This document shows positions 29,146 through 49,795 of a DNA stretch of 52,961 bases, one piece after another. The DNA lies in contig CAYYOO010000002.1 in the NCBI GenBank assembly GCA_964473335.1, forward strand, positions 1 through 52,961, read 5' to 3'. Source of the DNA: an uncultured Thermoplasmatales archaeon. Its GTDB lineage: Archaea; Thermoplasmatota; E2; DHVEG-1. The notes beneath the pieces were generated by a model. That model searched no databases and had not been told where the DNA came from. It worked only from the letters and a program-made list of their open reading frames with translations. The position numbers and the translations under genes are program-made. Numbering within the stretch: the first letter of the stretch is position 1; every line of letters begins with the position of its first letter.

Positions 29146-30384
29146 TTGAGAGATAAATATTATTTATTTTTAGGTTTAATAATACTAACTTTTGCCGTAT
29201 CTACTTCTTTTTGTCTTGCAGATCCAGCTGTGATGATTTCAGATTATGAGTTAGAGCCTAGTATATTTATGCCGGGTGATGAAGGTATCCTTTCTATTAC
29301 AGTTACTAACGGAGAATCCACATCAACTACAACTACTACTGAGACAACAGTTAGTGGCGGCAACACAGATACAACTAGTACCACTGATGTTAATGGGGTT
29401 TTTTTAACAAAGATTTGGATGATCAGTGCATCTGATGGTGATAAAGAAATAAAGGCAAGTGATTATTATTCAGATGTAGGCAGATTGTCTGCTGCAAAAA
29501 GTATTGCTATCGATTTCAAGGTCACAGTTGATGAAAATTTTTCTGAGGGAATATACTTTCCAAAAATTAAGATAAATCCCAGTGGATATAATGTTATAAA
29601 TTATCCTATTAAATTCCAGGTTAGTAATAATACAGTTGATTTGATTTCAAAAAATATTCCTAGCCAAATATCTCAAAGTGGTTCTACTGACATAACAATA
29701 TCAGTTGTGAATAATCGTGAGAACTCTGTGGATGGCGTGCATGTTTATGCTGATGAAATCGAGGGTATAAATTTCATTCCAGATAGCATTTTTGTTGGTT
29801 CACTTGATTCAGATTCCTCTGAAGATGTAACCTTTTCAATTGTCCCAAACAAAGTTGGGAATTATAATTTAAGTTTCAGAGTTGATTTTAAAAATGGTGA
29901 TAATTTACATAATTCTACAGCCATTGTTCCAATTAAGGTTGTTACAAACTATGATGTTGCACCAGTAATTTACTCTTTTCCAGAGACTGTTGTAAAGAAA
30001 GGTAGTGCAGATATAAGACTTGAAGTTTACAATGCAAAGACAGAGGAGATAACCGGTGTTATTGTCAAACCAATTACAAACATCTCAGTTTCTCCATCTG
30101 AGTATTTTATTGGGTCAATGGATCCAGATGATGTTTTTTCAGCAAGTTTTGATATTGATTCAGATAAATTAGAAGTAGGTAAAAATTATAGTGTTGATTT
30201 TAAAGTAACTTTTAAACAAGGTGATAACTACTATGAAACAAAAAGCGTTGGTTCTAGTTTTTATGTTTCTGAAGAATTAGTAAAGCAAAACAATAATTTG
30301 TTAGCATATCTATTTTTGTTTGTCATAATACTGATAGTGCTGATCTTGATCTATCGTTTTTTTAAAAAAAGGCGTCTTAAATGA
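29146..30384 (+). CDS. COG1361-type (CARDB/S-layer-like) surface protein with C-terminal TM anchor
   Basis: TTG start with GAAGGTGA upstream. Signal peptide, Thr-rich tract, beta-sandwich-like repeats (ITVTN..., ISVVNNRE..., LEVYNAK...) and a C-terminal TM followed by KKRR. Confidence 0.55.
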   Translation: MRDKYYLFLGLIILTFAVSTSFCLADPAVMISDYELEPSIFMPGDEGILSITVTNGESTSTTTTTETTVSGGNTDTTSTTDVNGVFLTKIWMISASDGDKEIKASDYYSDVGRLSAAKSIAIDFKVTVDENFSEGIYFPKIKINPSGYNVINYPIKFQVSNNTVDLISKNIPSQISQSGSTDITISVVNNRENSVDGVHVYADEIEGINFIPDSIFVGSLDSDSSEDVTFSIVPNKVGNYNLSFRVDFKNGDNLHNSTAIVPIKVVTNYDVAPVIYSFPETVVKKGSADIRLEVYNAKTEEITGVIVKPITNISVSPSEYFIGSMDPDDVFSASFDIDSDKLEVGKNYSVDFKVTFKQGDNYYETKSVGSSFYVSEELVKQNNNLLAYLFLFVIILIVLILIYRFFKKRRLK

Positions 30385-31070
30385 GAGAAGATGATTTTGT
30401 AATCGTTGCAAAAGATATCAATAAAATTTATGGTAAGGGTAAAAACAAAGTGCATGCCTTAAAGGATGTGAACATCGAAATTAAAAGAGGCGATTACATA
30501 ACAATTATCGGCCCTTCTGGTAGTGGTAAATCAACTTTTATGAATATACTTGGATGTTTGGATAAGCCTACTTCAGGTAAGTTCTTCATTGAAAATACTG
30601 ATGTTTCTACATTAAGTCAAAATAATCTAGCTAAACTTAGACGGGAAAAAATTGGTTTTGTCTTTCAAAAATATAATCTTCTTCCAACTCTTAATGCAAT
30701 TGAAAATGTATCTCTTTCTATGAGCTTTGCTGGTGTTGAGTATAGAAAAAAAATAAAAAGATCCAAGGATTTACTTGAAAAAGTAGGTCTTTCTCATAGG
30801 CTGGATCATAAACCTTCTGAGTTAAGTGGTGGTGAACAACAAAGAGTTGCAATTGCTCGCGCTCTTTCAAATAATCCATCTATTATTCTTGCTGATGAAC
30901 CAACTGGAAATGTTGATTCAAAAAGCGGAAGTAAAATAATGAACATTTTAGAGGAAATCAATAATCAAGGAGAAACTGTAATTGTTGTAACCCACGATCC
31001 AAATGTTGCAAAACGTGGTAGTTGGACCATTCGTATACATGACGGGGTGGTTAGTCCGTATGCTGATTGA
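30381..31070 (+). CDS. ABC transporter ATP-binding protein (MacB/LolD type)
   Basis: Walker [10 protein letters not shown], signature LSGGEQQR, Walker [12 protein letters not shown], and the H-loop VTHD. Confidence 0.9.
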
Positions 31071-32280
31071 TAATTTTAAGATCTCGATAAAGAATATCAA
31101 GGAGCGTAAATCACGTGTTGCGTTAACTTTGATTGGTATAGCAATAGGCATTATGGCTATTGTTGCTTTGATGAGTATTGGAGAGGGCATGCAATCAGCT
31201 GTAACTAGTGAACTTTCTTCTTTATCTGATACAATAATTGTTACCACTGGAAGTGTTGATGTAAATCCGATGGGTGGTGGTTTTTCTGGTAACGAAGGTA
31301 CTTTTTTTACCCAAAGAGATATTGATGATATTAGACGGATTGATGGACTTGAAAGTGTAAATCCAATTATGTTTGGCATGGCAACTATTGAATTTAATGG
31401 CGAAAATAAATTTGTTTCTCTTATTGGAATGGAACCTGAAAGCATGGCTGATATTTTTGGAATAGATTTTTTAGGACTATCTGATGGGGAGTTCATGCAA
31501 AATGGCGATCAAAATAAAGGTATAGTTGGTTATAATGTTGCAAATGAATATTTTGATACCAAAATAAGGGTTGGAAATAAAATAAAATTAAACGATCATA
31601 ATTTTTATGTTAATGGTATTTATAAAAAACAAGGCGCTGGTTTTTCAACTGAGACAGATGACTATATTCATCTTTCTGTTAGGGATTTCAAGAAAGTTAC
31701 TGGTCAAGAAAACATTAGTGGAATTTTAGTAAAAGTATCCGATCTCTCTGGTATTGAATCTATTGCTGATAAAATTGAATTTTCTTTAAATGAAAATCAT
31801 GGGTCTAATGATTTTGCAAATGTAATTACTATGTCTTCTATTCTGGAAAGCATTCAAAGTGTTTTATCAATAATTAGCCTATTTTTAGTTGGAATTGCAG
31901 CTATTGCTCTTGTTGTTGCATCCATTGGTATAATGAATACCATGCTTACATCTGTTATGGAAAGGACCCATGAGATCGGTATTATGAAAGCAATTGGTGC
32001 AGACAATTTTGATGTTATGGTTATATTTCTTACAGAAGGTATTTTAATTTCCTTTATTGGAGGTGTTGTGGGAACTATTCTTGGAATTGTTGGAGGCAAA
32101 GTTTTTTCTACTTTGTCATCAAGCAGTGCAGGTCCAGGTATTCCAATCGAGCCATCGGTTTCTATTTTTACAATTAGTCTTGCAATAGGTGTTGCTTTGT
32201 TTGTAGGAATCATATCAAGTTTATATCCAGCAAGAAAAGCAGCTAAAATGAGCCCTATTGAGGCTGTCAGATATGAATAA
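31060..32280 (+). CDS. ABC transporter permease (MacB/FtsX type)
   Basis: Start at [17 protein letters not shown] overlapping the ATPase stop. N-terminal TM, periplasmic-type domain and a C-terminal FtsX-like 3-TM bundle (RTHEIGIMKAIGA). Confidence 0.8.
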   Translation: MLIDNFKISIKNIKERKSRVALTLIGIAIGIMAIVALMSIGEGMQSAVTSELSSLSDTIIVTTGSVDVNPMGGGFSGNEGTFFTQRDIDDIRRIDGLESVNPIMFGMATIEFNGENKFVSLIGMEPESMADIFGIDFLGLSDGEFMQNGDQNKGIVGYNVANEYFDTKIRVGNKIKLNDHNFYVNGIYKKQGAGFSTETDDYIHLSVRDFKKVTGQENISGILVKVSDLSGIESIADKIEFSLNENHGSNDFANVITMSSILESIQSVLSIISLFLVGIAAIALVVASIGIMNTMLTSVMERTHEIGIMKAIGADNFDVMVIFLTEGILISFIGGVVGTILGIVGGKVFSTLSSSSAGPGIPIEPSVSIFTISLAIGVALFVGIISSLYPARKAAKMSPIEAVRYE

Positions 32281-32428
32281 TCATTTTTCAAAAGTAATAT
32301 AAGACATTTGCCGATTAGAATTTGTCTATTAGAACAAATCATATATATTTCGTTTATAGTCGAAAAATTAATCGACAAAAATATAAATGACTTCCTTCTA
32401 ATATATAGATAAGGATTCTTTAAAATGG

Positions 32429-33808
32429 ATGGCTGAAATCTTGATTTCATATGATAAATATTTAAAAGAATTTGAACATTATATTAAGAATTATATTCCA
32501 CCCAAAAAAACTTGGACGCCAGCTGAAAAAGCAGTTTACGGGCCAAAAGATTTTTTTAAGACACCTATAAAAGAGGCAAAGAAACTTAAACTTAATGCAA
32601 TAAAATACCAATTTAAAAATCATTATGAAAACAATAAGATGTACAATGGTTTTTGTAAAGAAATGAAAGTTAAACCAGAAGATATAAAAGAACACAAAGA
32701 CCTTGAAAAAATTCCCTTGGTACCTGGTGAATTCTATAAGGATTATCCTGAAGGAAAAGAATTTGCTCACTGGATTGCAAATATTTTTACTGGTGAAATT
32801 CCAAAGGTTAAGATAAAAGGTAAAAATCCTTCATTTGATCAAATAATAAATTCTTTTAACAACGCAGGTCTAAAAGTTGCTTACAGCAGTGGAACAAGTG
32901 GGATACATACTGTCATACCAAGGGATGAACGAACCTTTAACGCATCTGAATACGCAGTATCTAAAGCAGCAATATCTATGATTTATCCAATGTGGAAATA
33001 TGATTGTAAGGGTTATCTACTTATGCCTAATCCTTTTAAAACAAATGTATTTGCAGGAAAAGTATGCAGTATATATTATGATGCAATATCAGATGTTAAA
33101 TCAGCAATTGACAAACAAATTAACGCTGAAGTAATTAAGCTTAGCATGGGTGGAGAAAGTGGTCTTAAAGCAAAGATAATCAAAAAAGCCATTCAAAGTA
33201 AATACAAAAAAATTGTTAAAGATATTATAAGGTGGCTTGAATATCACTCAAAAAGAGATACAACAATAACATTTGTAGGAGCGCCATTTTTACTTTTTGC
33301 AGTAACAAACGCTTTAAAAGAAAAAGGAAAAACTTTTGATTTTTCAAACAGAGGAGCAATACTCACAGGTGGTGGTTGGAAAGCACAAGAATCACACCGT
33401 ATGCCTGTAGAGGAATTCAGATCCCAGATGCAGGAAGTACTTGGAATTGAACCTAATCATTGTATAGATATATATGGTATGGTTGAGGGAAATGGATGGA
33501 TGGTACATTGCCCTGAAGGTCATTATTTACATATCCCACATACTTATTATCATGTGATGGTCCTTGACGATGAATTCAAACCAATTGGATACAATGAATG
33601 GGGAAGATTTGCATTTATGGATGGATCCACATCAAGTTACCCTGGTTTTATCGTATCAGGGGACAAAGTTAAATTGCTTGAAAGATGTCCTGTGTGTGAT
33701 AGACCAGGACCTGTCCTTGAACCTGAAGTGACAAGAGCCACTGGTAAAGAAATGAGAGGATGTGCCGAAGAAGTAAGAAGAATGATTTCAAAAGACATAG
33801 GAGAGTGA
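32429..33808 (+). CDS. LuxE-like acyl-protein synthetase / adenylate-forming enzyme
   Basis: YSSGTSGIHTVIPRD (SSGT[ST]G adenylation loop), TGGGWK, DIYGMVEGNG (YGxxE-type), and a C-terminal CPVC. Confidence 0.55.
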   Translation: MAEILISYDKYLKEFEHYIKNYIPPKKTWTPAEKAVYGPKDFFKTPIKEAKKLKLNAIKYQFKNHYENNKMYNGFCKEMKVKPEDIKEHKDLEKIPLVPGEFYKDYPEGKEFAHWIANIFTGEIPKVKIKGKNPSFDQIINSFNNAGLKVAYSSGTSGIHTVIPRDERTFNASEYAVSKAAISMIYPMWKYDCKGYLLMPNPFKTNVFAGKVCSIYYDAISDVKSAIDKQINAEVIKLSMGGESGLKAKIIKKAIQSKYKKIVKDIIRWLEYHSKRDTTITFVGAPFLLFAVTNALKEKGKTFDFSNRGAILTGGGWKAQESHRMPVEEFRSQMQEVLGIEPNHCIDIYGMVEGNGWMVHCPEGHYLHIPHTYYHVMVLDDEFKPIGYNEWGRFAFMDGSTSSYPGFIVSGDKVKLLERCPVCDRPGPVLEPEVTRATGKEMRGCAEEVRRMISKDIGE

Positions 33809-33812
33809 AAAA

Positions 33813-34790
33813 TTGACAAGTCTTAAAGAAATGAAAGAAAGAGAATACATACCCCAAAAAATGTATGCCAAACTCTACATTGGAGGTGCACTTTCACTTA
33901 GTAAAACCCTTTTATTTAACTTAGGTGAACTAAAAAAACTTAGAAATCTACCTAAGGATTCTGAAAGATATGTAAGACCTAAAAGAGAATATGAAATACC
34001 AAAATATAAAAAAAATATGAAGGTATCAAATTCAAATGAAAAATATCTTCGCCCTACCTTATATTGTGATCATAGAGAACCTGAAGTAATAGCTCTAGCA
34101 CACAAATTAGGTGCTTTTAAAAAAAGTGATAAGGAATATGCTGAAGCCGCTTTTGAACTTGTAAAAGAAAAAATGACTCTTGAAATATGTGAGATGAACA
34201 GAGTAGGAAAGACCTTAAAAAGAGGAACAGGAACCTGTTTTCATTTGATTACTGCTTTTATTGCATTATGTCGTGCTGCTGGAATAAAAGCAAGATACAA
34301 GGTGTTTGCAATGAATATGATAAAAGCATGGTATGATTCAGTTGTACAAGCAGATCCTCTTATAAAAAAATGGTATGACTCAATGGGTTATTTTATGCTT
34401 GAAGGTGAAGGTGAAGCATATATAGATGGTAAATGGATTGTAGCACATGTTGGTCCAAGAGCAGCAAGACAGGCTGCAGCTGGAATACCTATTACAAATT
34501 TTGGAGAAGATTCAATTGGCAGATGGTTTTTTGCAATACCTGGATCAATTATGAGGATGGAGTCAGTTCCATATGGTTTTTCCGGCTCAACAAAATTTCT
34601 AAAAAAATTAGCTCCAGGTTCAATGGAACGGGTAAACATCAGTATCTTAAAACAAATAAAAAAAGGAGAAAAAATAATCAAAGATGCAGGTGGAATTAAG
34701 GCCTACGATCGAAATGCAAGAAAAGAAAAAGGCCCGAAAAAACCTGATATAAAAATAGAAAAAACAGAAAAAATTGTTTTTGAGGAGTGA
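33813..34790 (+). CDS. Transglutaminase-like (papain-fold) domain protein
   Basis: The core motif GTGTCFHLITAFIALCRAAGIKARY matches the G-x-C...R-x-x-GIPAR signature. TTG start 4 nt after the previous stop. Confidence 0.5.
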   Translation: MTSLKEMKEREYIPQKMYAKLYIGGALSLSKTLLFNLGELKKLRNLPKDSERYVRPKREYEIPKYKKNMKVSNSNEKYLRPTLYCDHREPEVIALAHKLGAFKKSDKEYAEAAFELVKEKMTLEICEMNRVGKTLKRGTGTCFHLITAFIALCRAAGIKARYKVFAMNMIKAWYDSVVQADPLIKKWYDSMGYFMLEGEGEAYIDGKWIVAHVGPRAARQAAAGIPITNFGEDSIGRWFFAIPGSIMRMESVPYGFSGSTKFLKKLAPGSMERVNISILKQIKKGEKIIKDAGGIKAYDRNARKEKGPKKPDIKIEKTEKIVFEE

Positions 34791-34796
34791 TTTTTT

Positions 34797-36269
34797 TTGA
34801 AAAAAAATACTATTTCTTTTCCCGAACCAAACAAAGTAATAAATGAAAAACCATCTTTGAAAAAATATTTGAAATATTTGCTTTTTTTTGGTCCTGGTGC
34901 TATTGTTGCATCAATGACAATTGGCCAAGGTCAACTTATATTAGGTCCACAAATTGGAGCCTGGGCAAAATTTGGCCTTTTATGGATTATAACTGTAAAT
35001 ATTGCATCGTATATTTTTTGTTATATTGGTACTAGGTTCACAATGCTTTCTGGGATAAATGTTATGGATATTTTTTCATACAAGACAAAAAAAGGATGGT
35101 TTAACTGGCTTCTTTTGGTAATTATCTTTATTTTTTTACCTATTTTTACAGCAACAATTATTACAACAGTTGGCCAGTCTTTGTCGTGGATAATTCTTGG
35201 TTCGCCTAATAATAATCTTTATCTTCCTATGGGCATAGCTGTTTGTTTATTAGCTGCATTTCTGATTTTAAATGCTAAATACAAGTTTTTAGAATATATT
35301 CAGGCTTTTTTCATAGTTATTCTTGGTGTTGGAGCAGTAATATCAGGAATTCTTGTTCTACAATCAGTATCAGGTGTTGATTATTTTGATATGTTTATTA
35401 GTTTTTTTAAATTTGGAAATGTTCCAACTTACCCAGCTTGGGTGGATGGTGTTGAAGGTTTTACAAAGACACCTATTCCAATGCTTATGCTAGGTTATCT
35501 AGGTACCCTTACGATCTCTATGATTCCGCTTGTTGGGTATCTTGGATGGATCAAGGTCAAAGGCTGGGGTATTTTTAGAAATAAGAAAGATCCTAATAAA
35601 TTTGAAGAGGAAAGCATAAAGAGATTTAAAAAAGATAAAGGAAAAATTACATATCTTCCAAATTCAGATGAGGAAGTAAAAAAATCAAGAAAGCTCATGA
35701 TACCTTTAAAGGTGGATTTATTTATTGCTTTTATTGTAGTGTCAATTATTTCAGCCGCTTATGTAATATGCGGAGTGTTTTTACTTGGTAATCAGGAAAG
35801 TTTACCTACTGACATAAATCTAATTGAAAAACAAGCAAGAATTTTTACTACTATTTCGCCTTTTTTAAAGCCCCTGTTTCAAGTAAGTGTATTTTTTGCA
35901 TTTTTTGGTACTATATATGCTGGTTTTGAAGCAGCAGCTAGAATGATTTTTCAGACATCTAAAAACATCATTCCTAAAGTAAAAAATATTGAATATAAAA
36001 GATATTTATTGTATCTAATATTGTATGTTCTTCTCACTGGAATTCCATTATCTATTATGATATATAAGGGATTATCTTTCTTTTTGTTGCTTAGCTTAAC
36101 ACTATTATTCATTGGAGTGGTTGGAGTTTTATTTTATGGTATAGCTGTAATCTATATGTCCCAAAAGATTTTACCAGAAAAATATAGGCTAAGTAATTTT
36201 GGCCTTATTCTTGGAATTATTGCGATTGTTTTGATGATAATTCCTTTCCTTGCTTTTGTTTATGGATGA
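34797..36269 (+). CDS. Nramp-related polytopic membrane transporter (non-canonical)
   Basis: GPGAIVASMTIGQGQLILGPQIGAWAKFGLLW parallels the Nramp TM1 block GPG...DPGN...G...LLW, but DPGN is replaced by TIGQ. About 11 TM helices with a Lys-rich cytoplasmic insert. Confidence 0.45.
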   Translation: MKKNTISFPEPNKVINEKPSLKKYLKYLLFFGPGAIVASMTIGQGQLILGPQIGAWAKFGLLWIITVNIASYIFCYIGTRFTMLSGINVMDIFSYKTKKGWFNWLLLVIIFIFLPIFTATIITTVGQSLSWIILGSPNNNLYLPMGIAVCLLAAFLILNAKYKFLEYIQAFFIVILGVGAVISGILVLQSVSGVDYFDMFISFFKFGNVPTYPAWVDGVEGFTKTPIPMLMLGYLGTLTISMIPLVGYLGWIKVKGWGIFRNKKDPNKFEEESIKRFKKDKGKITYLPNSDEEVKKSRKLMIPLKVDLFIAFIVVSIISAAYVICGVFLLGNQESLPTDINLIEKQARIFTTISPFLKPLFQVSVFFAFFGTIYAGFEAAARMIFQTSKNIIPKVKNIEYKRYLLYLILYVLLTGIPLSIMIYKGLSFFLLLSLTLLFIGVVGVLFYGIAVIYMSQKILPEKYRLSNFGLILGIIAIVLMIIPFLAFVYG

Positions 36270-36327
36270 TTTGAATTAATTATAGGAAAAAATATATAAG
36301 AACGCTTAATTATATTTGGTTTAAAAT

Positions 36328-39300
36328 ATGAAAATGAAAAAATATATTGTAATTATATTAATACTAATGTTCTTTCTTAGTCCAATTAATATTTTGACTG
36401 ATGCAGATCAAATTAGATCAACTGATTTATCAACTTATCAATATAAACAGATTATTTCAATTCCTTTTGACACAAGTATAGAACAATCAAAATTTTATCC
36501 AGTTGATATAAAGATTAATTTTGAAAATCCATGTTATGCAGCTGATGAAAAAGATAATTCAGTTAGAATTGGCTGTGAAATAGACCTAGAATTAATCGAA
36601 CTTGAATCCCAGATCTATGATCTTAAAAAAACAGATGATAATTATATATCATCTTGTAATGTTGTTTTTCTAATACCAGAAAATGCAGATGGAAAAGAAG
36701 AATACTATGTATTCTATGATTCAGAAAAAAAAGATTCACCTGATTATGAAAAACATATTGAACTTACTGATTCCCATTATTTTTATGAACCAATATCTGG
36801 ACAAAAAATAGATCTTGATTACTATGGAATAAAAGAAAATGATAATGTTATTTATGGAATATGTCAAACTGGTGAACTTCTTGGTAATCCAATTGCATTA
36901 AGTGTATTAAAATTCAAACCAAATTCAAAGATTTTTGAAACATATAACATTGATCAACTAGCAGTCTTTGATATGCGATATGGAATAAATCCTCAACCGG
37001 GATATGAAGGGACATCATGGGCTGAAAATGTAAAAAAAACAGTTCTAGTTGATGGAAATCTAATGGTGAGAGTAAGACTTGAAGCAGAATCTCCAAAGGG
37101 AAACATTCTATCTGATAATATCTATACATACTATCATTCACCAACTGAAAATAAAAAAATTGTTGTAGATTGTTATCACGAGATTTTAAGTGATATATAT
37201 GTCGAAGAACCAAGTCTTTTAGATGGTACATATGGTGGAATTGTATCAATTAAATCGAGAAGCTCAACAATTGAAAAAATGAATGTCGGATCAATTCTTC
37301 CTAAACTATATGTGTATACTGAAGATGAAACAATAAATGATTTTTCTGTTCCACAAAACCCAAGTACAATCGAAAGAGAGGCAATCATTTCAACTGAGGA
37401 TGATATAGATCTAGGTAACTCAGCTTGGCTTTGCTCAAAGGATCCAGATAGAGGTATATTTCATGGTTTAATAGTTGATTCAAACAAAGGTTTTACTGAA
37501 GAAAATGATGGGATACAGGTTAAATCATGGGTTAAAGAAAATATCAATTATCCTGGTCTTGAGGCAGATACAGGTAATCTCTATATTTCAAGAAATTCTT
37601 ATGAAAATAAAAAACATAACCCTGATCTGATAGATGGTTTTAATGTAAATTATAAAGTAGAATTTTTCACTATAAAAAGTGAGAAAATAAGTAATATAAA
37701 TGATAGATCTGAAATCTTTCAAAATGCTCAATTAATCTTTCCTTCCTTTAGAAAAAATATTACTTCAGAAGAAACCGAAAAAAAAGAACGATTTAATCTT
37801 ACAACATATGTACATATGGCTACTTCTTTTCCTCTTGGTTCTCTTCTATCTGCTAGATTTGGTAAAAAACTACCCTACATATATGCTGAATTGTATAAAG
37901 ATAACACCTTTAAATCATCAGGATCAGTTGGTAGACTTACCGTTGGATCAGTCGATCTTGATTTAGAGGGAAAGACACTGATAGGAAAAATCAGAACAAT
38001 ACTTGGGATATTTGATTTTAAGAAGAGCTCTTTTTTCAAAAGAATTGTTTTTCCAGATCTTGAAGAGGGTAGATATGTCATTAAGATTTTTAGAGAAAAC
38101 CCGTTTTTTTCAGATGAAAGAAAATATATTGGTTATGGAATTGTTGATGTAGATAAAAATACAACACTTAGAATATTTTGTACATCTGAAGCAAAAAGCA
38201 ATTTTAAAATTAAGGATCAAGATCAAAATGGTATAAAAGATGCTGAATTTTTTATTTTATCAGGAGAAAATATAATTGCAGATGAAAGATCTGATAAGAA
38301 TGGTACAGCTAAACTTTCAGCTCCAGCTAGTTTTAAAGATAAATATAAACTAAGGATTTTATACAAAGGGTTTCTTGTTTCTGAAGAAGAAATAAAACTC
38401 GGGTTTCTTAATCATTTTAAGGAATTAAATAAAAATTACAAACTAGATTTATATGACCTAAATATAAGACTAAAGGATTTATGGGGATATACACCTGAAG
38501 TAGATGTAAATATCTTTTTAGAAAGTAATGAAATGGTTGATGAATTTACAATTACATCAGAAAAAATTGATAGAAAAAACTATATTTTTAAGGATTTATT
38601 ATCAAGTAAATATGATCTTTTTTTAAAGTATAAATCGTTTGAACTAAAAGAAAATATTGATCTAAAAAATGATGATACAATAGATCTATTATTTCCTGCT
38701 GAATACAAAACAGATATCAACTTTTTCAATCTTTTTGGTGAGAAGATTTCAAATGGCAAAGTAATTGTTACTAGAAATAACAAAAAAATAACATTAGATA
38801 TTGATGAAGATGGACATTCTTCTTTTATTGTTCCACCTGGTGAGTATAGATTAGATATTGTTAATGAAGATGAAAAGATAGCATTTCAAGATATCAATAT
38901 TAAAGGCTCAAAGAAAATTGATATTGTTACTGATACTGGTTCTTTGATTCATTATGCAGTTACTATTCTTGGTATCATTGGTCTAATTATTTCATTTGTT
39001 TATATGATATACAAAAAGAAAATATGGGCTGGTTTGAAATTAATAGTAATCTTCTTGATAGTTATCTCTATTTTTCAACCCTGGTGGGTTTTAAATGGGG
39101 ATAACAGTGTCAAAACAACTACTACAACAACTTTATATCCACCTAAAATGGTATCTTTTACTGAAGGTGCTGAAGGAATGGGCGGGAGTGTAAGTATTCT
39201 TCCTCCTGAGTTAACAAGTTTACTAACGATCCTTTCAGTAATTCTATTTGTATCTATAATATTTATCTTGTTATCAATTGTTTCAAAAAACAGGTTTGAA

Positions 39301-39570
39301 AAAACAAGTAAAATATTATCTTTTATAAGTATTATACCAGTAGTTATCACTCTAGGTCTTTTTTATTATGCATTGTCCTTGTTAACTGAACTTGGTGTCG
39401 GTAGTTTTATGGGAACAGGTCAAGTTATGGCAACAGTTCCAGGTCAAGTAGAATCTGTTTTAATTGACAGTAGTTGGGGGCCGGGACTTGGTTTTTATAT
39501 AGCATTGGTTACAATTTTTATCATGTTTATTTCCCTTATTTTTAAAAAAAAGTTTAAAAACAAGTTTTAA
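36328..39570 (+). CDS. Large (1080 aa) envelope protein: signal peptide, long extracellular region, C-terminal 5-TM domain
   Basis: N-terminal hydrophobic leader. A prealbumin/CarboxypepD_reg-like segment (KIKDQDQNGIKDAEFFILSGE...DKNGTAKL). Five hydrophobic helices in the last ~230 aa. Confidence 0.45.
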   Translation: MKMKKYIVIILILMFFLSPINILTDADQIRSTDLSTYQYKQIISIPFDTSIEQSKFYPVDIKINFENPCYAADEKDNSVRIGCEIDLELIELESQIYDLKKTDDNYISSCNVVFLIPENADGKEEYYVFYDSEKKDSPDYEKHIELTDSHYFYEPISGQKIDLDYYGIKENDNVIYGICQTGELLGNPIALSVLKFKPNSKIFETYNIDQLAVFDMRYGINPQPGYEGTSWAENVKKTVLVDGNLMVRVRLEAESPKGNILSDNIYTYYHSPTENKKIVVDCYHEILSDIYVEEPSLLDGTYGGIVSIKSRSSTIEKMNVGSILPKLYVYTEDETINDFSVPQNPSTIEREAIISTEDDIDLGNSAWLCSKDPDRGIFHGLIVDSNKGFTEENDGIQVKSWVKENINYPGLEADTGNLYISRNSYENKKHNPDLIDGFNVNYKVEFFTIKSEKISNINDRSEIFQNAQLIFPSFRKNITSEETEKKERFNLTTYVHMATSFPLGSLLSARFGKKLPYIYAELYKDNTFKSSGSVGRLTVGSVDLDLEGKTLIGKIRTILGIFDFKKSSFFKRIVFPDLEEGRYVIKIFRENPFFSDERKYIGYGIVDVDKNTTLRIFCTSEAKSNFKIKDQDQNGIKDAEFFILSGENIIADERSDKNGTAKLSAPASFKDKYKLRILYKGFLVSEEEIKLGFLNHFKELNKNYKLDLYDLNIRLKDLWGYTPEVDVNIFLESNEMVDEFTITSEKIDRKNYIFKDLLSSKYDLFLKYKSFELKENIDLKNDDTIDLLFPAEYKTDINFFNLFGEKISNGKVIVTRNNKKITLDIDEDGHSSFIVPPGEYRLDIVNEDEKIAFQDINIKGSKKIDIVTDTGSLIHYAVTILGIIGLIISFVYMIYKKKIWAGLKLIVIFLIVISIFQPWWVLNGDNSVKTTTTTTLYPPKMVSFTEGAEGMGGSVSILPPELTSLLTILSVILFVSIIFILLSIVSKNRFEKTSKILSFISIIPVVITLGLFYYALSLLTELGVGSFMGTGQVMATVPGQVESVLIDSSWGPGLGFYIALVTIFIMFISLIFKKKFKNKF

Positions 39571-39577
39571 ATAAACA

Positions 39578-40411
39578 TTGAAAATTCACTCTTTTGTTAT
39601 GAATAAGTCTTATCGAATCGGAAATTATGAAACTAGACCTTATTCAAAATTTAGAAAAGATATTGAAATTGTAACTTCTGAAGGATGGAGAAAAAGAAGT
39701 GCTCATGCAATTCTTGAAATAGATGTGACAGTTGCCCGTGAAAAAATTAAAAAAATTAAAGGAAAAACTGGAGAAAAACTTTCTTTTACTGGTTTTATAA
39801 TCAATTGTGTATCTGAATCAATGACCAAACATAAGAGTCTAAATTCATATAAACTTGGTAGAAAAAAGATTGTTTCTTTTGATGATGTAGATGTAGCAAT
39901 TCCTGTTGAAAAAAAAACTGATGAAGAAGTAAGACCCCGGGTTTATATCGTCAGAAAAGCTAATGAAAAAACAGTTTCAGAAATCACTAAAGAAATAAGA
40001 TCAGTTCAAAAACAAAGCGTTGAAAATAAAACTGAACTATTAGGTGAAGAAGAAACGAAGTTAGAGCGTTTTGTTTTAAGCCTTCCCTTTTTTCTTAAAA
40101 AAATACTTATGCGTTTTATTAGAAAAAAAGGGCTATTTAAAAAGAAATATATGGGTTCAACTGCTGTTACTGCAATTGGCATGAAAGGTAATTTCAAAGG
40201 ATGGATTGTTCCACTTGGTGGTACTGCTACAACTCTTTTTGTAGTAGGTGGTATATCAAAAAAACCAAGGGTTGTTGATGATAAAATTGTTCCAAGAGAA
40301 ATACTTCATTTAACAATAACAGTTGATCATGATTTAGTTGATGGCGGCCCTCTTGCTAGATTTGTTGAAACTCTTACAAATCTTATGGAAAAAGGATATG
40401 GTTTAGAATAG
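39578..40411 (+). CDS. Stand-alone 2-oxoacid dehydrogenase E2-type acyltransferase catalytic domain (CAT fold)
   Basis: The C-terminal catalytic motif LTITVDHDLVDGGPLARF matches DH[RD]xxDG. No lipoyl or subunit-binding domain is present. An alternative in-frame ATG lies at 39599. Confidence 0.65.
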   Translation: MKIHSFVMNKSYRIGNYETRPYSKFRKDIEIVTSEGWRKRSAHAILEIDVTVAREKIKKIKGKTGEKLSFTGFIINCVSESMTKHKSLNSYKLGRKKIVSFDDVDVAIPVEKKTDEEVRPRVYIVRKANEKTVSEITKEIRSVQKQSVENKTELLGEEETKLERFVLSLPFFLKKILMRFIRKKGLFKKKYMGSTAVTAIGMKGNFKGWIVPLGGTATTLFVVGGISKKPRVVDDKIVPREILHLTITVDHDLVDGGPLARFVETLTNLMEKGYGLE

Positions 40412-40454
40412 ATAAAAAAAATTTTAAAAAAAGTTTTTTTGAAAAGAATATTGT

Positions 40455-40583: not shown

Positions 40584-40791
40584 TGTATCAGTAACACTCA
40601 ATTTTAGTAGTGTATAAATAGCTTTTGGTTATAATTTATATAGATTTATATAAATGCATTTTTTCATTTTACAAACGTAAATTATTAGACAGAAAATCTT
40701 AAAAATATATCAAAAACTAATCGGATTTTTTTATAAAAGTTTAAATTATTTGTTTTTATACAAATATCATAATTGTTTTGAGGAGAGAACC

Positions 40792-43700
40792 ATGAAAAAA
40801 TTCCTTATATTATCTGTAATAATTTTGTTAGTTGGAGCTGTTTTTTTAACTGGATGCGTTCAAGAAAATACTGATGAAAATGATGATGGAACAGATGATT
40901 TAGAAAATACAATAGATCAAAGTGAAGCATACAATATTTTACTTGAAAATATCCTAAAACCCGGCTCATCCAATAGTCAATCTTCGGCTTTTATGCTAAC
41001 TGAGATGTTGAAACCAGGGGATGTAATAACTTCAGATAGTGGTGAAACATATACAATTGATAAGGATACCTGGTTTGTATTTATTGACGATCAACCTTGG
41101 GCTTTTTTTTCTCACCCTGTAAGATATATAAAAATCAATGCACAAACTGGTAATTATGAAGTGATAAACGAGAATTGGCCTCCATTGATAAACAATAATT
41201 CACTTTGGGATAAGGTAAATCATAATCGAGGAAATGTTAAAGACATCTATCCAGTTTTAAATCAATCTGTTCCGATAAATAGTACTGATGATACAGGCGC
41301 ACCAAATGCTGATTATGGTGATGCGCCTGACACTCAGAATGCTTATTATGGTGTGATTGGTTCTTTTCCAACTTATTATAATACTACCAATAGCAGAGTT
41401 GGTTATCCTGGCGCACATACATTAAATACAGGTGAGGAAACACTTGGTTTAACTGTAAGTGCTGAAGTCGATGCAAGTGATCCTAATGATCCAGATCTTG
41501 TCCCTAATCTTGTTGACTCAGATAAAGATGATTCTTTGTATGTATATATCAACAATCAGAATGCTCAATTATCCTTTACAGTAAAAGTAAGTAAAAATGC
41601 TCCAGATGTCAATCGTTATATCAATGTTTTAATTGATTTTGATCAAAATGGAAGCTGGATTAAAGGCAGTTATGGTGAAGAATGGGTTATTAAAAATTAT
41701 GAAGTAAATGTAAAACCGGGTACTACAAAAACAATTACCACACCTCAATTTTCTTGGGGTAACAAATCAACTTCTCCTTCTCCTGTTTGGATGCGTGTAT
41801 CTTTAACCAGAAAAAAAGTTAATGAAACTTTATTTTCAACTGTTGGAGGATGGGACGGCAGTGGTCAATTTGAATATGGTGAAATTGAAGACCACATTGT
41901 TTATCTGACTGATGATATACCTGAACCTGAGAAAGTATGGCCTCCTTGGCCTAAGAACCCTCCAAAGGGTGGAACTCCTAATCCGCCAGGGGGCGGAGGC
42001 CCTCAACCACCCGGTTCAACTACTGGGCCATGTGGAACAACTGTAAACTATCACTCGATTATCATCAGCGGTGGTGACTCAAGTAGCCATCTGGGAAAAG
42101 GACTAAGTCCAGCAACTGAGGCAGTAGGCACAATGACTGATTTACTTAGTGATCAGGGATATAGCTCTGTTGGAAGCCTTGGTCCTGGAAGTAACTCTAT
42201 GGCTGATATTGAGCAGGCTTTTGAAAACCTAAAAGCATCAGTTAAGTGCGGCGATCATGTTCTTATATATATTGTTGGTCACGGTAAACCTGCAAAAGAC
42301 GGAGGAGGTATTGCAATGAAAGGAACTAGTGGTAAAACACATGATACAATGAAACCAAGTGATCTGTCAAACCTTTTGGATTCAATTCCAGCATGTCCTG
42401 ATGAGGATTGTGATGTAGAGGGAAAATGCTGTCATGTAACGGTTGTGATTGAATCATGTTATGCAGGAAATTTCAATGATGATAGTATCAAAGGTACTGG
42501 TAGAACAGTCATGGGCTCATCAGATGATGAACCAGCCGCTGCAACAGGCGGAGGTGTGTTTACAAGCGGTTTTAGCGATGCATCAAATAATGAAGATAGT
42601 GATGCTGATGATGATGGAACAGTTACACCGCAGGAAGCATTTGATGGTGCTGAAGATAGTGTTTCAGATAACAATAAAAAATCAGGTAGAGGACAAGAAC
42701 CCTGGTCTGACAGTCAGGAATGTGAATGTAAATGTCCGTGCAGCCCAAGTATTGATGTTGATAAATACGTTTTAGATGGTGATGACTGGGCAACAGAAAT
42801 CGATGCATTTTTAGGCGATAGTGCTTCTTTCAAGGTTACTATTCTAAATGATGGAAAATGTAGGGATATTTCAGATCTATCTTTTGTTGACAGTCTTCCA
42901 AGTTGCTTAGGTTATGGTAGTGATGGAAGTGTAACATATACTGATTCTGAAGGACAAATATCAGAACTTAGCTTGTCTCCTTCATTGTCTGATACCGCCG
43001 GTGGCGGAACCCAGCTTACTTGGGATATTGGATCTGAAATCGGTCTTTTTTCACCTGATGAAGTGATTACTATTGAGTATTCAGCAACAACACTTGAAAT
43101 CGGTGAAAACACAAACATTGCAAATGCTACAGCAAAATGCACATATGATCCAAGTATTACAGTTAGTGATAGTGATTCAGCAACTGTTAATGTAGCGTCT
43201 GAACCTGTGGATGAAATACCTCCTGTTGAAGAAACAATGTCTGTTTTTTTAGAGGGATCTGGCGAATGTAGCTGTGTGGGTGAAGAATGTTCGGGAACTA
43301 TTACAATTTCATCATATGGAGCAACTGATTTGTCAGATGGTCAATATCCAATTTCTGAAGTAACTTTATCTATTAATGGCATACAAAAATCTTCAGCGAC
43401 ATTAACCTCAGATCCTTTCAGTAGTTCTTATTCAGAGGAATTTTCAGATTGTTCATTACTATATGATGTTATAGTAACTGCTACAAACAGTGCGGGTCAA
43501 AGTCTTAGCACAAATGCCACTCTAGAACTTGTAACAATATTAAGTATTGATGTCAGTGCAACAGCAGAATCATATTATGAATATCAAGGTAAGGAGATTA
43601 CAAGCTGTATAAGCTATCTAAATGTTACATTTGAAGCAACTGATCCATCTGGTGAAAACCCTATTCTTGAAGTAAGTATGACAAAGACTAATGATGGAAA

Positions 43701-43869
43701 TACTGAAGATATTGAAGTCACTGAGCCTTTAGGATCTAGTGATTTTTTACAAAAGGAATATTATCAAACAGATTGTGGCGAGACGTTTACTTTTGAAATG
43801 ATTGTCACAACTTCAAAAAAAGTTAGGGAAACATCGATAATTATTACTACACCAACTCCAGAGTTATAA
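40792..43869 (+). CDS. Large secreted lipoprotein: GEVED-like domain, Pro/Gly linker, clan CD (caspase/legumain-like) peptidase domain, DUF11-like repeat
   Basis: Start MKKFLILS...LTGC (lipobox-like) with GAGGAG upstream. DYGDAPD...FEYGEIEDH, PPWPKNPPKGGTPNPPGGGGPQPPG, the His/Cys dyad IYIVGHGKP ... VVIESCYAGNF, and VDKYV...FKVTILNDG...VDSLP. Confidence 0.5.
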   Translation: MKKFLILSVIILLVGAVFLTGCVQENTDENDDGTDDLENTIDQSEAYNILLENILKPGSSNSQSSAFMLTEMLKPGDVITSDSGETYTIDKDTWFVFIDDQPWAFFSHPVRYIKINAQTGNYEVINENWPPLINNNSLWDKVNHNRGNVKDIYPVLNQSVPINSTDDTGAPNADYGDAPDTQNAYYGVIGSFPTYYNTTNSRVGYPGAHTLNTGEETLGLTVSAEVDASDPNDPDLVPNLVDSDKDDSLYVYINNQNAQLSFTVKVSKNAPDVNRYINVLIDFDQNGSWIKGSYGEEWVIKNYEVNVKPGTTKTITTPQFSWGNKSTSPSPVWMRVSLTRKKVNETLFSTVGGWDGSGQFEYGEIEDHIVYLTDDIPEPEKVWPPWPKNPPKGGTPNPPGGGGPQPPGSTTGPCGTTVNYHSIIISGGDSSSHLGKGLSPATEAVGTMTDLLSDQGYSSVGSLGPGSNSMADIEQAFENLKASVKCGDHVLIYIVGHGKPAKDGGGIAMKGTSGKTHDTMKPSDLSNLLDSIPACPDEDCDVEGKCCHVTVVIESCYAGNFNDDSIKGTGRTVMGSSDDEPAAATGGGVFTSGFSDASNNEDSDADDDGTVTPQEAFDGAEDSVSDNNKKSGRGQEPWSDSQECECKCPCSPSIDVDKYVLDGDDWATEIDAFLGDSASFKVTILNDGKCRDISDLSFVDSLPSCLGYGSDGSVTYTDSEGQISELSLSPSLSDTAGGGTQLTWDIGSEIGLFSPDEVITIEYSATTLEIGENTNIANATAKCTYDPSITVSDSDSATVNVASEPVDEIPPVEETMSVFLEGSGECSCVGEECSGTITISSYGATDLSDGQYPISEVTLSINGIQKSSATLTSDPFSSSYSEEFSDCSLLYDVIVTATNSAGQSLSTNATLELVTILSIDVSATAESYYEYQGKEITSCISYLNVTFEATDPSGENPILEVSMTKTNDGNTEDIEVTEPLGSSDFLQKEYYQTDCGETFTFEMIVTTSKKVRETSIIITTPTPEL

Positions 43870-44184: not shown

Positions 44185-45108
44185 ATGACCGAATGTGAAT
44201 GTCCAAACATTTACGAAAAAGTAGATTTCCCTGCAGAAAAATTAATTAAAAAAACAACTAATGCTAAAAAATTTATTTGTAATGAATTTATTTATGGGGG
44301 GCATTGGCTTTCACTTGGGGGTTCTGCTTTTATTTTGTCAATAATGTTAATGCTGCAAATCTCATTTAGATGGGAATTAGTTATTATTGTATATTTGTTA
44401 CTCCAAATCGTATATAATTATGATCACTACACATTTTTGGAGGAAGATTCTAAAAATAACCCAAATAGAACAAACCATCTTAAAAAATATCAAAAATTCT
44501 TCCCTATATTCCTAGTAATTTATAGTTCTTTATTCTTTGGATTATTGTATATTTTTGGTAATACAATAAGTTTTATTTTTGGAACTTTTTTATTGACTTT
44601 AGGCCTTTTATATACTATTTTTTGTAAAAAACTTACATCTAAAATTGTAGGTTTTAAGAATTTTTATACATCTTTCTCTGTTTCATTATTAGTTATATTT
44701 GTAACTTTTCATAGTTTTTATGAGATAAACATTTTATCTCTTATATTCATTTTATTTATCTTTATACGCCTTTTAGTTAATACTAGTTTTTGTGATCTAA
44801 AAGATATGGATATTGATAAGAAACAAAATTTAAAAACGCTACCAATCTATTTTGGAAAACAAAAATTTCTTACATTCCTTCATATCCTAAACTTTATTTC
44901 ATTTATTCTTTTGTCAACTGCTATTGTTACAGGTATAGCACCATCGTTTTCGATATTTTTACTTTTGTTTTTTCCATATGTATATTATTATATCAAAAAA
45001 GCAAAAAAAACAGATACCGATCTTCAATCATTGTCTAGTTTTGCAGTTGATGGAGAATTTATAATATGGCCGATTTTATTATTTATAGGATCCATTTTCA
45101 TATTTTAA
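44185..45108 (+). CDS. UbiA-superfamily-like polytopic prenyltransferase, paralog 1
   Basis: Eight to nine TM helices. The second Asp-rich block DLKDMDIDKKQNLKTLPIYFG fits D-x-x-D-x-x-x-D...G-x-x-T-x-P...G. The first motif is non-canonical (YNYDHY). Confidence 0.5.
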   Translation: MTECECPNIYEKVDFPAEKLIKKTTNAKKFICNEFIYGGHWLSLGGSAFILSIMLMLQISFRWELVIIVYLLLQIVYNYDHYTFLEEDSKNNPNRTNHLKKYQKFFPIFLVIYSSLFFGLLYIFGNTISFIFGTFLLTLGLLYTIFCKKLTSKIVGFKNFYTSFSVSLLVIFVTFHSFYEINILSLIFILFIFIRLLVNTSFCDLKDMDIDKKQNLKTLPIYFGKQKFLTFLHILNFISFILLSTAIVTGIAPSFSIFLLLFFPYVYYYIKKAKKTDTDLQSLSSFAVDGEFIIWPILLFIGSIFIF

Positions 45109-45153
45109 ATAAAATGTAGCAAAAGTTATATATTTAAAACGAGATAAAAATCT

Positions 45154-46308
45154 ATGAAAATAAAAAATAATGTTAGAGATATCATGATTGTAGGAGGAGG
45201 CCCTGCAGGGGCATATTTAGGATATCTTCTTGCAAAAAATAATATTAAACCAATAATTTTTGACCATTCACACCCACGTGAGAAACCTTGTGGGGGAGGT
45301 ATTAGTGCTTTTGCTTTAAAAAAATTTTCATTTCTAAATGAGATATCTGAAGTATTTGCCCCGAAAAATGAATATGAAGGTGAATTAATATCGCCTGAAG
45401 GAATAAATGTAACAATAAAAGGAAAAGAACCTTCTTGGACGATCTCAAGAAAGATCTTTGATAATTTTCTTCTTAATAAAGCATTAGATAATGGTGTAAA
45501 ATTAATCAAAGAGCAAGTTATAGATGTAAAACAAATAGATAATTTATGGGAGATTAAAACAAAAAAGGGGACTTATAAAGCAAAAATATTAATTGGTGCT
45601 GATGGAGTTAATAGTATAGTTCGGAAAAAGATACTTGGACCAATACCAAAATCTGATATTGGCATATGTTATGGCTGTTTTGCTGTTAGTAAAAAACAAG
45701 AGATACCAAGAGTAAAATATTTGCTAAATGGCGAGGGGTATTTTTGGTGTTTTCCTAGAGAGGATCATTTGAGTATAGGTATTGGTATACCCTCTTATGA
45801 GAAAAAAGATGTAAAAGAATTACTAAATAATTTTATAGAGGAGTATTATCCTAATATTAAGATACAGTCAAAATGGGGGGCAACAGTTCCATTTATCAAT
45901 GATACTAATTTTTATAATACACCATGTTCGGGTGATAATTGGATATTAATAGGTGATGCTGCAGGTCATGTTGACCCGATAACGGCAGAAGGTATCACTT
46001 ACGCACTATGGTCTGCAGAATTAGCTTCTAAAGCAATCATAAATGGCGATATTTCTTCATATGATAATATGTGGAAACAAGAATATGGTGAAAAACTATT
46101 AACTGGATGTAAGATGAGACACATGTTTTATAATCCTAGTTTTCTTGAACAATCAATGAAGATTGCATCTAAGAGTAAAACCTTTTCCAGTTTACTCTAT
46201 GATATAATGCAAGGTAAACAAAGATATCAATCTCTAATGAGAAGAGTGATTATTGATTCTCCAAAAATAATAAAAGAATATTTTATCAAATCAATTGAAG
46301 AGTATTAA
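45154..46308 (+). CDS. Geranylgeranyl reductase family FAD-dependent oxidoreductase
   Basis: IMIVGGGPAGAYLGYLLA (dinucleotide fold), PCGGG, GADGVNS, and GDAAGHVDPITAEGITYA. Confidence 0.7.
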   Translation: MKIKNNVRDIMIVGGGPAGAYLGYLLAKNNIKPIIFDHSHPREKPCGGGISAFALKKFSFLNEISEVFAPKNEYEGELISPEGINVTIKGKEPSWTISRKIFDNFLLNKALDNGVKLIKEQVIDVKQIDNLWEIKTKKGTYKAKILIGADGVNSIVRKKILGPIPKSDIGICYGCFAVSKKQEIPRVKYLLNGEGYFWCFPREDHLSIGIGIPSYEKKDVKELLNNFIEEYYPNIKIQSKWGATVPFINDTNFYNTPCSGDNWILIGDAAGHVDPITAEGITYALWSAELASKAIINGDISSYDNMWKQEYGEKLLTGCKMRHMFYNPSFLEQSMKIASKSKTFSSLLYDIMQGKQRYQSLMRRVIIDSPKIIKEYFIKSIEEY

Positions 46309-46391
46309 TTTTTCTAGTATTTATTTTTAAATCTATAATTTATATAATACTTTAAATATTACGAAATTAATTAGTATCTAGTGAAAAAATA

Positions 46392-49124: not shown

Positions 49125-49448
49125 CCATCCTCTTTTAATATATAATTTGCATCTGTAATCAAGTAAATAGATTTTGTGGTTGTTATAATTTGAAAAAGGG
49201 AGATTTGATGTTAAAAAACCAGAGATATAAAAAAATAGTTTATTTTTTACTTCAAATAAAATATTATATTACTACTTTGATTTAAAGGGTGAAATCGTGT
49301 ACGGGAATAAATTTGAATAAAACTCCTTCTAGCTCCTTTTAAAATACGATATGAAATAAGGGGGGAAGGGATTTGAACCTTTAGCGATAATGCTTAAAAG
49401 AAGCATTTGAAAAAAGAAGGTCTTTTCTCCTGTAAAAAGTATATCGAG

Positions 49449-49543
49449 TGCTCCCGACGGGATTCGAACCCGTGTAGCTGGCTATCTTCAGGTTAAATAC
49501 CTGCGAAAGGCCAGAATGATTGGCCGGACTACACCACGGGAGC
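49449..49543 (-). tRNA. tRNA-Glu(UUC) with a 20-nt intron after position 37
   Basis: Minus strand reads GCUCCCG-UG-GUGU-AGUCCGGCCAA-UCAU-U-CUGGC-CUUUCG[CAGGUAUUUAACCUGAAGAU]A-GCCAG-CUAC-ACGGG-UUCGAAU-CCCGU-CGGGAGC-A. The intron maps to 49484-49503. No CCA is encoded. Confidence 0.85.
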
Positions 49544-49605
49544 ATATGAATTATTTTTCCCTAAACACACATTTGTTATATAAAATTACTTACAAATTTA
49601 GGTGA

Positions 49606-49678
49606 TAGTCCCGCCCAGATTCGAACTGGGGTCTCTGGCTCCAAAGGCCAAAATGATTGACCGCTACACTACGGGACT
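49606..49678 (-). tRNA. tRNA-Gln(UUG)
   Basis: Minus strand reads AGUCCCG-UA-GUGU-AGCGGUCAA-UCAU-U-UUGGC-CUUUGGA-GCCAG-AGAC-CCCAG-UUCGAAU-CUGGG-CGGGACU-A. 73 nt with all stems paired. Confidence 0.85.
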
Positions 49679-49795
49679 AATTATTTTTTAGAATGGTGCA
49701 TAAGGATTTTACTATATAATATTTAACGTTATTTAAGAAGTATAAAAAAAAGAAATTATTTTGCAGCTATCTAAACTGCAAAACTATTTGTTTTA

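Follow-up and report, generated by a model that had tools for sequence, protein, structure and literature searches.

In the LuxE-LuxC fatty acid reductase, residues K238 and R355 of the acyl-protein synthetase LuxE are responsible for adenylation and thioesterification, Cys364 within a flexible C-terminal motif (TRxxKGCxLS) receives the acyl group, and the tail then swings into LuxC and acylates its active-site cysteine (PMC9157457). Here we describe a relative of LuxE that is encoded beside a different partner, a transglutaminase-fold (TG-like) protein, on a 52,961-nt stretch of DNA from an uncultured Thermoplasmatales archaeon (assembly GCA_964473335.1, contig CAYYOO010000002.1; hereafter the window). 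The two genes open a run of five on the plus strand that continues with an Nramp-like permease, a 1080-aa membrane protein and a stand-alone E2-type acyltransferase (E2-like; Table 1). An earlier reading of the sequence alone (the original prediction) had described these genes as an operon and suggested that it may activate a fatty or other carboxylic acid and transfer it onto an envelope protein, a lipid or an exported small molecule. No description of the LuxE-like/TG-like pair was found in the literature on LuxE or acyl-protein synthetases in combination with transglutaminases, archaea or Thermoplasmata.

Comparison of related loci showed that the conserved core of this cluster is the LuxE-like/TG-like pair, which is found across Thermoplasmatota, and that the Nramp-like, 1080-aa and E2-like genes are lineage-specific additions. 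With respect to anatomy alone (a real cluster with a conserved two-gene core, an accessory permease and 1080-aa protein, and a loosely linked E2-like gene), our confidence is high. The fuller statement, in which a lineage-specific cluster is built on this core and the pair acts as an acyl relay, is put forward tentatively and with somewhat less than an even chance of being correct.

Conservation of the LuxE-like/TG-like gene pair

A total of 80 loci with LuxE-like relatives, taken from species-representative genomes, and three further metagenome loci were scored by tblastn and by clustering of all open reading frames (ORFs); denominators given below are the loci with enough flanking sequence to assess. 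The closest homologues by name came from metagenome-assembled genomes (MAGs) of Thermoplasmata/Thermoplasmatota, and the LuxE-like and TG-like proteins shared 50–85% identity across Thermoplasmatota, Methanomassiliicoccales included. A TG-like gene was located directly downstream of the LuxE-like gene, on the same strand, at 73 of 79 loci, and 76 of 79 had one no more than 6 kb away. The gap between the two had a median of 1.5 nt and was 20 nt or less in 62 of 68 cases, and the genes are probably translationally coupled.

The remaining members of the cluster were far less constant. The Nramp-like gene was present at 34 of 65 loci and was often replaced by a gene for a major facilitator superfamily (MFS) permease, which followed the TG-like gene at 15 loci; the median gap from the TG-like gene was 6 nt to the Nramp-like gene and −4 nt to the MFS gene. 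A gene for the 1080-aa protein was present at 25 of 57 loci, 24 of which also carried the Nramp-like gene, and the distance between these two was 50–150 nt in all cases. The E2-like gene was found at only 4 of 46 loci, and the complete five-gene order was restricted to the closest relatives of the window (L005, L007 and L008; LuxE-like identity 74–81%). The survey therefore contradicts the proposal of a single functional set conserved as five genes, and it corrects the unit with which experiments should start to the two-gene pair.

Four architectures were recognized: 1) LuxE-TG-Nramp-1080 aa, with or without an E2-like gene or a short-chain dehydrogenase/reductase (SDR) gene, 2) LuxE-TG-MFS, 3) LuxE-TG (a paralogue) followed by a short Nramp-like gene, an SDR gene on the opposite strand, and then TG-MFS, and 4) LuxE-TG alone, which included every Methanomassiliicoccales locus. 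The LuxE-TG-MFS cassette was also identified in a closed Anaerolineales chromosome (L031) and in Coprothermobacterota MAGs, where the copies were most similar to archaeal loci carrying the MFS gene. A further apparent bacterial occurrence, on a 2.4-kb contig assigned to a Bacteroidales MAG (L035), was rejected; its LuxE-like gene is 97% identical to that of a Thermoplasmatota locus (L038) and the contig is probably mis-binned.

Several other candidates were set aside. Neighbouring genes for QueE-like, proteasome alpha, SBDS, Rrp4, PAN, aRF1 and GPN GTPase proteins, judged by sequence without a profile search, were regarded as housekeeping synteny rather than pathway parts. An ORF fusing the Nramp-like and 1080-aa proteins (L009, 8319–12866) was dismissed as Rosetta-stone evidence because its junction is a run of N, i.e. 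a scaffold gap. Similarly, a 1147-aa ORF (L050, 2642–6085) in which a TG-like N-terminal part (68% identity over ∼225 aa) precedes Peptidase_C1 and lectin-like domains was not used, as it is a single case with a truncated TG part and may be a chimera.

Expansions by paralogues were also observed. One locus (L003, 5374–12810) contained three LuxE-like genes and a single copy each of the TG-like and Nramp-like genes, and others included L047, L051, L052 and L062; several loci carried two tandem TG-like genes of distinct subtypes, ∼68% and ∼53% identical to the TG-like protein of the window. In the source records the LuxE-like proteins were named “hypothetical protein”, “PaaK-like adenylate-forming protein” or “long-chain-fatty-acid--luciferin-component ligase”, and the TG-like proteins “hypothetical protein”, “transglutaminase domain-containing protein” or “transglutaminase family protein”.

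The LuxE-like protein

The Pfam LuxE profile matched the window protein at 106 bits against a cut-off of 24.9, and the LuxE-like, TG-like and E2-like assignments of the original prediction were all borne out by Pfam profiles (Table 1). The motifs that it had quoted were likewise present, namely SSGTSG (residues 153–158), GGGWK (314–318) and YGMVEG (349–354) in the LuxE-like protein and DHDLVDG in the E2-like protein. The score against the NCBIfam LuxE equivalog was 92.7 bits, far below the cut-off of 550. On these profiles the window protein is classed as a true LuxE-family acyl-protein synthetase and, since the equivalog cut-off was missed so widely, not as an orthologue of the lux LuxE. An exact-sequence look-up of the protein gave no match, and no transmembrane (TM) segment or signal peptide was detected by hydropathy.

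Only one solved relative was found by sequence, LuxE in its complex with LuxC (7xc6_E; E 2e-19, with the C-terminal half aligned). Residues K318, R436 and C445 of the window protein aligned to K238, R355 and C364 of LuxE, with R443-G444-C445 opposite K-G-C364. K318, R436 and C445 were invariant in 84 locus-derived and 39 database sequences, and R443 and G444 were invariant as well. This conservation supports a protein built for self-thioesterification at C445. In the AlphaFold2 (AF2) model, which had a predicted local distance difference test (pLDDT) score of 85, residues 441–459 formed a low-confidence tail along which pLDDT dropped from 54 to 40. The best Foldseek matches to the model were PaaK1, BT_0428, ClxA and the phenazine-biosynthesis adenylating protein 3hgv (E ∼5e-15), and the N-terminal region matched PaaK and F390-synthetase models weakly. 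Five additional residues (C361, H365, H368, C420 and C423, in HCPEGHYLH ... CPVCDR, residues 361–423) were invariant as well; they fall outside the LuxE motifs described in PMC9157457 and might form a metal (Zn) site.

The resemblance to LuxE raises the question of a lux-like carboxylic-acid reductase, in which the LuxE-like thioester would be handed to an NAD(P)H-dependent SDR (Epimerase/NAD_binding_4 type) and reduced to an aldehyde, with the TG-like protein as a helper or editing thioesterase. An SDR gene was indeed found near the pair at about 10–11 loci in several arrangements (SDR loci: L001, L010, L012, L019, L022, L023, L028, L029, L032, L033, L064 and L089), and the SDR matched NAD_binding_4, a thioester-reductase family (E 9.6e-21). 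However, no SDR homologue was present in the 53-kb window or at most loci, the gene was often on the opposite strand, its best matches were to sugar-nucleotide epimerase/dehydratase families, and the constant partner of the LuxE-like gene was the TG-like gene, not the SDR. We consider a reductase of this kind highly improbable. No LuxC-like (aldehyde-dehydrogenase-fold) gene was found in the window or at any of the 80 loci, and LuxD and LuxAB are absent.

The TG-like protein

The Pfam match of the TG-like protein (37.9 bits, cut-off 23) aligned profile positions 2–75 of 108 and ended before the expected His and Asp. Across 36 TG-like sequences C142, H212 and D233 were invariant, in the canonical order and spacing, and in the AF2 model (pLDDT 81.7) C142 was placed at a helix N-terminus and H212 at the end of a strand, with D233 following 21 residues later. 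On sequence and model, the protein looks catalytically competent. Foldseek returned 3isr first (E 3e-4, probability 1.0), and further matches were 3kd4, TgpA, TG2/FXIIIa, arylamine N-acetyltransferases (NAT) and the amide synthase GdmF. Searches of PDB sequences with the protein or its profile gave no meaningful match, and hydropathy revealed no TM segment or signal peptide. The family is small, comprising 57 clusters (50% identity, E ≤ 1e-30) among 1.84 billion representatives, and its full-length members are ∼320 aa long.

Membrane proteins of the cluster

The original prediction had called the third protein a non-canonical Nramp-like permease, and this description held. The NCBIfam model Nramp_1 (NF037982) was matched at 67.5 bits (cut-off 50) over nearly its full length, with residues 32–457 on profile positions 1–402 of 404. 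The window protein had no match to Pfam Nramp, which its orthologues matched weakly, and a PDB sequence search with the protein or a profile gave no match. Alignment to Escherichia coli MntH using hhalign placed the sequence GQGQ opposite DPGN and I-P-L opposite M-P-H. The helix-1 aspartate is universally conserved in SLC11 (PMC8806188); here it is replaced, and G43 and G45 were invariant in 22 Nramp-like orthologues. As the defining SLC11 aspartate is replaced, the permease is probably not a metal carrier.

Hydropathy of the 1080-aa protein identified segments at residues 6–24, 873–891, 899–917, 967–985, 996–1014 and 1054–1072. The window protein itself had no Pfam match, its N-terminal 600 residues matched nothing, and a profile of orthologues found no match in the PDB; CarboxypepD_reg-type beta-sandwich repeats were matched by 13 of 17 orthologues (best E 2.4e-10).

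A large surface protein, co-encoded at 25 of 57 loci, invites the suggestion that the target of the pair is a protein, such as the 1080-aa protein or another envelope protein, which would be acylated, cross-linked or processed. Animal transglutaminases, which act on proteins, do appear among the structural neighbours of the TG-like protein. In contrast, the LuxE-like and TG-like proteins have neither signal peptide nor TM segment and so are cytoplasmic. More than half of the loci lack the 1080-aa protein, and at others an MFS permease replaces the Nramp-like/1080-aa unit. No conserved small ORF or other candidate target was seen beside the pair at the surveyed loci. Protein modification is thus, in our view, very unlikely.

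A proposed acyl relay

The observations above are consistent with the following scheme. The LuxE-like protein would adenylate a carboxylic acid, as suggested by its conserved motifs, and move the acyl group onto its own Cys445 on the flexible tail in the manner of LuxE. The tail would then pass the acyl group to Cys142 of the TG-like protein, which would take the place of LuxC; near-invariant adjacency and apparent translational coupling point to this step. The TG-like protein would in turn use ping-pong chemistry to pass this group on to a nucleophile such as an amine, as its fold suggests by analogy with transglutaminases, arylamine N-acetyltransferases and GdmF. Two of its structural neighbours, NAT and GdmF, are acyl transferases that use thioesters. 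Lastly, from gene context, a small-molecule substrate may be imported, or the product exported, by the co-encoded secondary permease. In the window this would be an Nramp-like carrier without a metal site that works with the 1080-aa surface protein, and elsewhere an MFS carrier. The link to a small molecule is drawn because the TG-like gene is usually followed by the gene for a secondary transporter of either of two unrelated families (Nramp-like at 34 loci, MFS at 15).

If so, the pair would constitute an unrecognized, phylum-wide acyl relay (acyl-AMP to tail thioester to TG-fold thioester to amide or ester), served in some lineages by a new non-metal branch of Nramp proteins that works with a giant surface protein. 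The product or recycled compound could be a metabolite, a lipid head group or a protein modification characteristic of Thermoplasmatota. In this specific form the proposal is possible, though on balance rather unlikely. With respect to the original prediction, carboxylic-acid activation and acyl transfer are still the most plausible chemistry, yet the transferase is likely the TG-like rather than the E2-like protein, and nothing found in the analysis supports a fatty-acid substrate or an envelope target.

Several points weigh against the relay. Many TG-fold proteins act as hydrolases or proteases, and 3isr, the best structural match of the TG-like protein, is annotated as a putative cysteine protease. 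Transfer from LuxE-like to TG-like is deduced from adjacency alone, and no fusion of the TG-like protein to another domain was found among family representatives. About half of the loci, including all those of Methanomassiliicoccales, lack an adjacent transporter, and the link to small-molecule transport is therefore not universal. The alignment of the Nramp-like permease to MntH is weak (hhalign E 0.0074, probability 5%), though it is collinear and backed by the full-length NCBIfam match.

An alternative is a synthetase/hydrolase pair. Here the LuxE-like protein would make a conjugate through a thioester or amide bond, and the TG-like protein, as a cysteine amidase or peptidase, would attack that bond or one related to it, either freeing the acid from an imported conjugate before its re-activation or reversing the ligation. 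A parallel exists in glutathionylspermidine synthetase, which is paired with a papain-like amidase domain. Both 3isr and 3kd4 are putative cysteine proteases, and the position of TG-like genes immediately upstream of permease genes would fit processing of an imported compound. However, an invariant tail cysteine of the LuxE type implies a protein-bound thioester meant for hand-over, and there is no constant partner besides the TG-like protein. Overall, we judge a hydrolytic role unlikely.

The E2-like acyltransferase

The fifth gene encodes, as originally proposed, an E2 catalytic domain that stands as an orphan. Its DHxxxDG motif is intact and was invariant in 25 sequences. Its matches in the PDB were E2 cores (best 3mae, E 3.9e-9), and no TM segment was detected by hydropathy. 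The database copy is 270 aa long, for which reason the start is probably the ATG at 39599, making the gap to the 1080-aa gene 28 nt instead of 7 nt. Orphan E2 proteins of ∼270 aa form a large family that is widespread in Thermoplasmatota MAGs.

In a model built on the original prediction, all five proteins would serve one pathway in which the E2-like protein performs the key transfer to an envelope protein, lipid or exported molecule. The invariant motif is in keeping with this, as is the location of the gene 7–34 nt after the 1080-aa gene in the window, L005, L007 and L008. The E2-like gene also occurs directly upstream of LuxE-TG-MFS (L023), 3.7 kb downstream of the 1080-aa gene (L089), and 3.5 kb from LuxE-TG on the other strand (L087). 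Nevertheless, it is absent from 42 of the 46 loci with enough flank. When approached from the E2-like side, 4 of 6 orthologues were in unrelated contexts, beside HAD or adenylate-kinase genes with a Peptidase_C25 gene one gene away (L085, L086) or beside Ski2-like helicase, HhH-GPD and primase genes (L090, L091); the recurring neighbours (Ski2-like helicase, HhH-GPD, Peptidase_C25) suggest ordinary synteny. As a rule, E2 cores work with acyl-CoA or with thioesters of lipoyl groups, and a CoA ligase is absent. A metagenome scan with the E2-like protein recovered one locus (L084) with no cluster genes nearby and was uninformative. The proximity of the E2-like gene to the pair exceeds chance, yet fits loose ancestral synteny, and the gene is an occasional add-on or bystander rather than a core part. 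A pathway of five proteins is accordingly regarded as decidedly unlikely.

Peptidase-like genes were also noted in the window. The product of the gene following the E2-like gene (40750–43869) is a GEVED-domain protein of 1039 aa whose caspase/C13-like matches are weak and below threshold, and another Peptidase_C25 gene is located at 11447–13414. A link of the E2-like gene with such surface peptidases, and not with the LuxE cluster, is possible.

Cluster boundaries and neighbouring genes

The ORF list confirmed five co-directional ORFs separated by 4, 6, 58 and 7 nt, as first reported (Table 1). They are not chance ORFs, given such lengths at a GC content of ∼30% in the window and the many conserved homologues of each. 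A TATA-like sequence, AATATATAGA, at 32400–32409 lies 20–29 nt 5′ of the LuxE-like ATG and may act as a promoter, and 338 nt without an ORF separate the E2-like stop codon from the next gene at 40750. Scans for sigma-70 promoters and bacterial terminators, which are not applicable to archaea, found sites no more common than in shuffled sequence. From these features the boundaries of a five-gene operon look plausible, and the cluster is probably a lineage-specific, co-transcribed unit.

Table 1. Features of the LuxE-like/TG-like cluster and its flanks (positions in the window).
Feature	Position	Strand	Basis and remarks
Upstream intergenic region, candidate archaeal promoter	32281..32428	+	Read from sequence; 148 nt, AT-rich, after MacB-type permease gene
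LuxE-like acyl-protein synthetase, 459 aa	32429..33808	+	Pfam LuxE PF04443, E 2.6e-30
Transglutaminase-fold (TG-like) protein, 325 aa, putative Cys142-His212-Asp233 triad	33813..34790	+	Pfam Transglut_core PF01841, E 2.4e-9
Nramp-like (LeuT-fold) permease, 490 aa	34797..36269	+	NCBIfam Nramp_1 (NF037982), E 1.3e-18
1080-aa membrane protein	36328..39570	+	N-terminal TM/signal anchor, ∼850-aa ectodomain with transthyretin-like repeats, five C-terminal TM segments
Stand-alone E2-type (CAT-fold) catalytic domain, 277 aa	39578..40411	+	Pfam 2-oxoacid_dh PF00198, E 1.2e-21
Candidate terminator	40412..40445	+	A/T-rich with T8 run right after E2-like stop codon; putative function

Directly upstream of the cluster, genes for a CARDB surface protein, an ABC ATPase and a MacB/FtsX-type permease (29146–32280) were kept in place in the closest relatives (L004, L005, L007 and L008). 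At two Chloroflexi loci an ABC ATPase gene follows LuxE-TG (L039, L040), and one of them (L040) also has FtsX-type permease matches downstream. Such ABC/FtsX-type genes could represent a third transporter type tied to the pair.

Elsewhere in the window, a tyrosine-integrase gene (24–1394; Phage_integrase, E 1e-17) and an MCM helicase gene (3154–5085) at its start suggest that the region 24–5085 may be an integrated element or provirus. Downstream, a row of genes at 44185–47252 (a UbiA prenyltransferase, a geranylgeranyl-reductase-like flavoprotein and a second UbiA-family gene) probably belongs to isoprenoid lipid or quinone metabolism; a UbiA gene was found near the cluster in L002 and L007 too. 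A tRNA-Arg(TCG) gene (49448–49543), whose length of 96 nt suggests an intron, neighbours a tRNA-Gln(TTG) gene (49604–49679). Taken with the names of the closest homologues, this tRNA-Arg assigns the window to an uncultured Thermoplasmatota archaeon.

Comparison with known systems

Were the relay correct, LuxE-type synthetases would not be confined to bioluminescence and would instead be general acyl-delivery modules for different cysteine enzymes. A first function would be provided for two of the better-conserved “hypothetical” proteins of Thermoplasmatota, including gut and sediment Methanomassiliicoccales, and a branch of the Nramp superfamily that probably carries no metals would be defined. 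Every part comes from a known superfamily, and the proposal is of an adenylation-thioester relay in which the partner is new, rather than of a system new in kind.

The accessory proteins resemble known families in part. The Nramp-like permease shares with SLC11/Nramp transporters (MntH) and NRMT Mg2+ transporters a full-length, collinear match to the Nramp model and a multi-TM layout of the LeuT type. It differs in that the universal SLC11 Asp is Gly43, the Asn is Gln and Met-Pro-His is Ile-Pro-Leu, in a ∼50-residue hydrophilic insertion between TM6 and TM7, and in its pairing with the 1080-aa surface protein. The E2-like protein has the CAT-fold domain and invariant DHxxxDG of 2-oxoacid dehydrogenase E2 cores. 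Unlike E2 it stands alone, without lipoyl or E1/E3-binding (PSBD) domains, and neither the scanned window ORFs nor the E2-like loci L085–L091 showed E1 or E3 genes.

The TG-like protein is comparable with transglutaminases, NAT and GdmF on the one hand and with 3isr and TgpA on the other, sharing a predicted TG core in which an invariant Cys opens a helix and His and Asp come after it at canonical spacing. Unlike all of these, it has family-specific N- and C-terminal helical extensions and forms a distinct family.

PaaK-type ligases and short ANL enzymes (BT_0428, ClxA, 3hgv) offer the best overall structural likeness to the LuxE-like model. However, sequence profiles place the window protein in the LuxE family, and a LuxE tail cysteine motif replaces the ANL C-terminal subdomain, which argues for self-thioesterification rather than coenzyme A ligation. 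Another close system is the LuxE-LuxC fatty acid reductase, with which the pair shares a LuxE-family synthetase retaining the Lys/Arg pair and the acylated tail Cys, and tight coupling of the synthetase gene to that of a partner enzyme with a nucleophilic cysteine. The window protein is 86 aa longer than LuxE and of low sequence identity to it, and the partner has a TG fold, whereas LuxC is a reductase of the aldehyde-dehydrogenase fold. Lastly, lux systems are hosted by bioluminescent bacteria, whereas the LuxE-like/TG-like pair is hosted by archaea and a few Chloroflexi and Coprothermobacterota.

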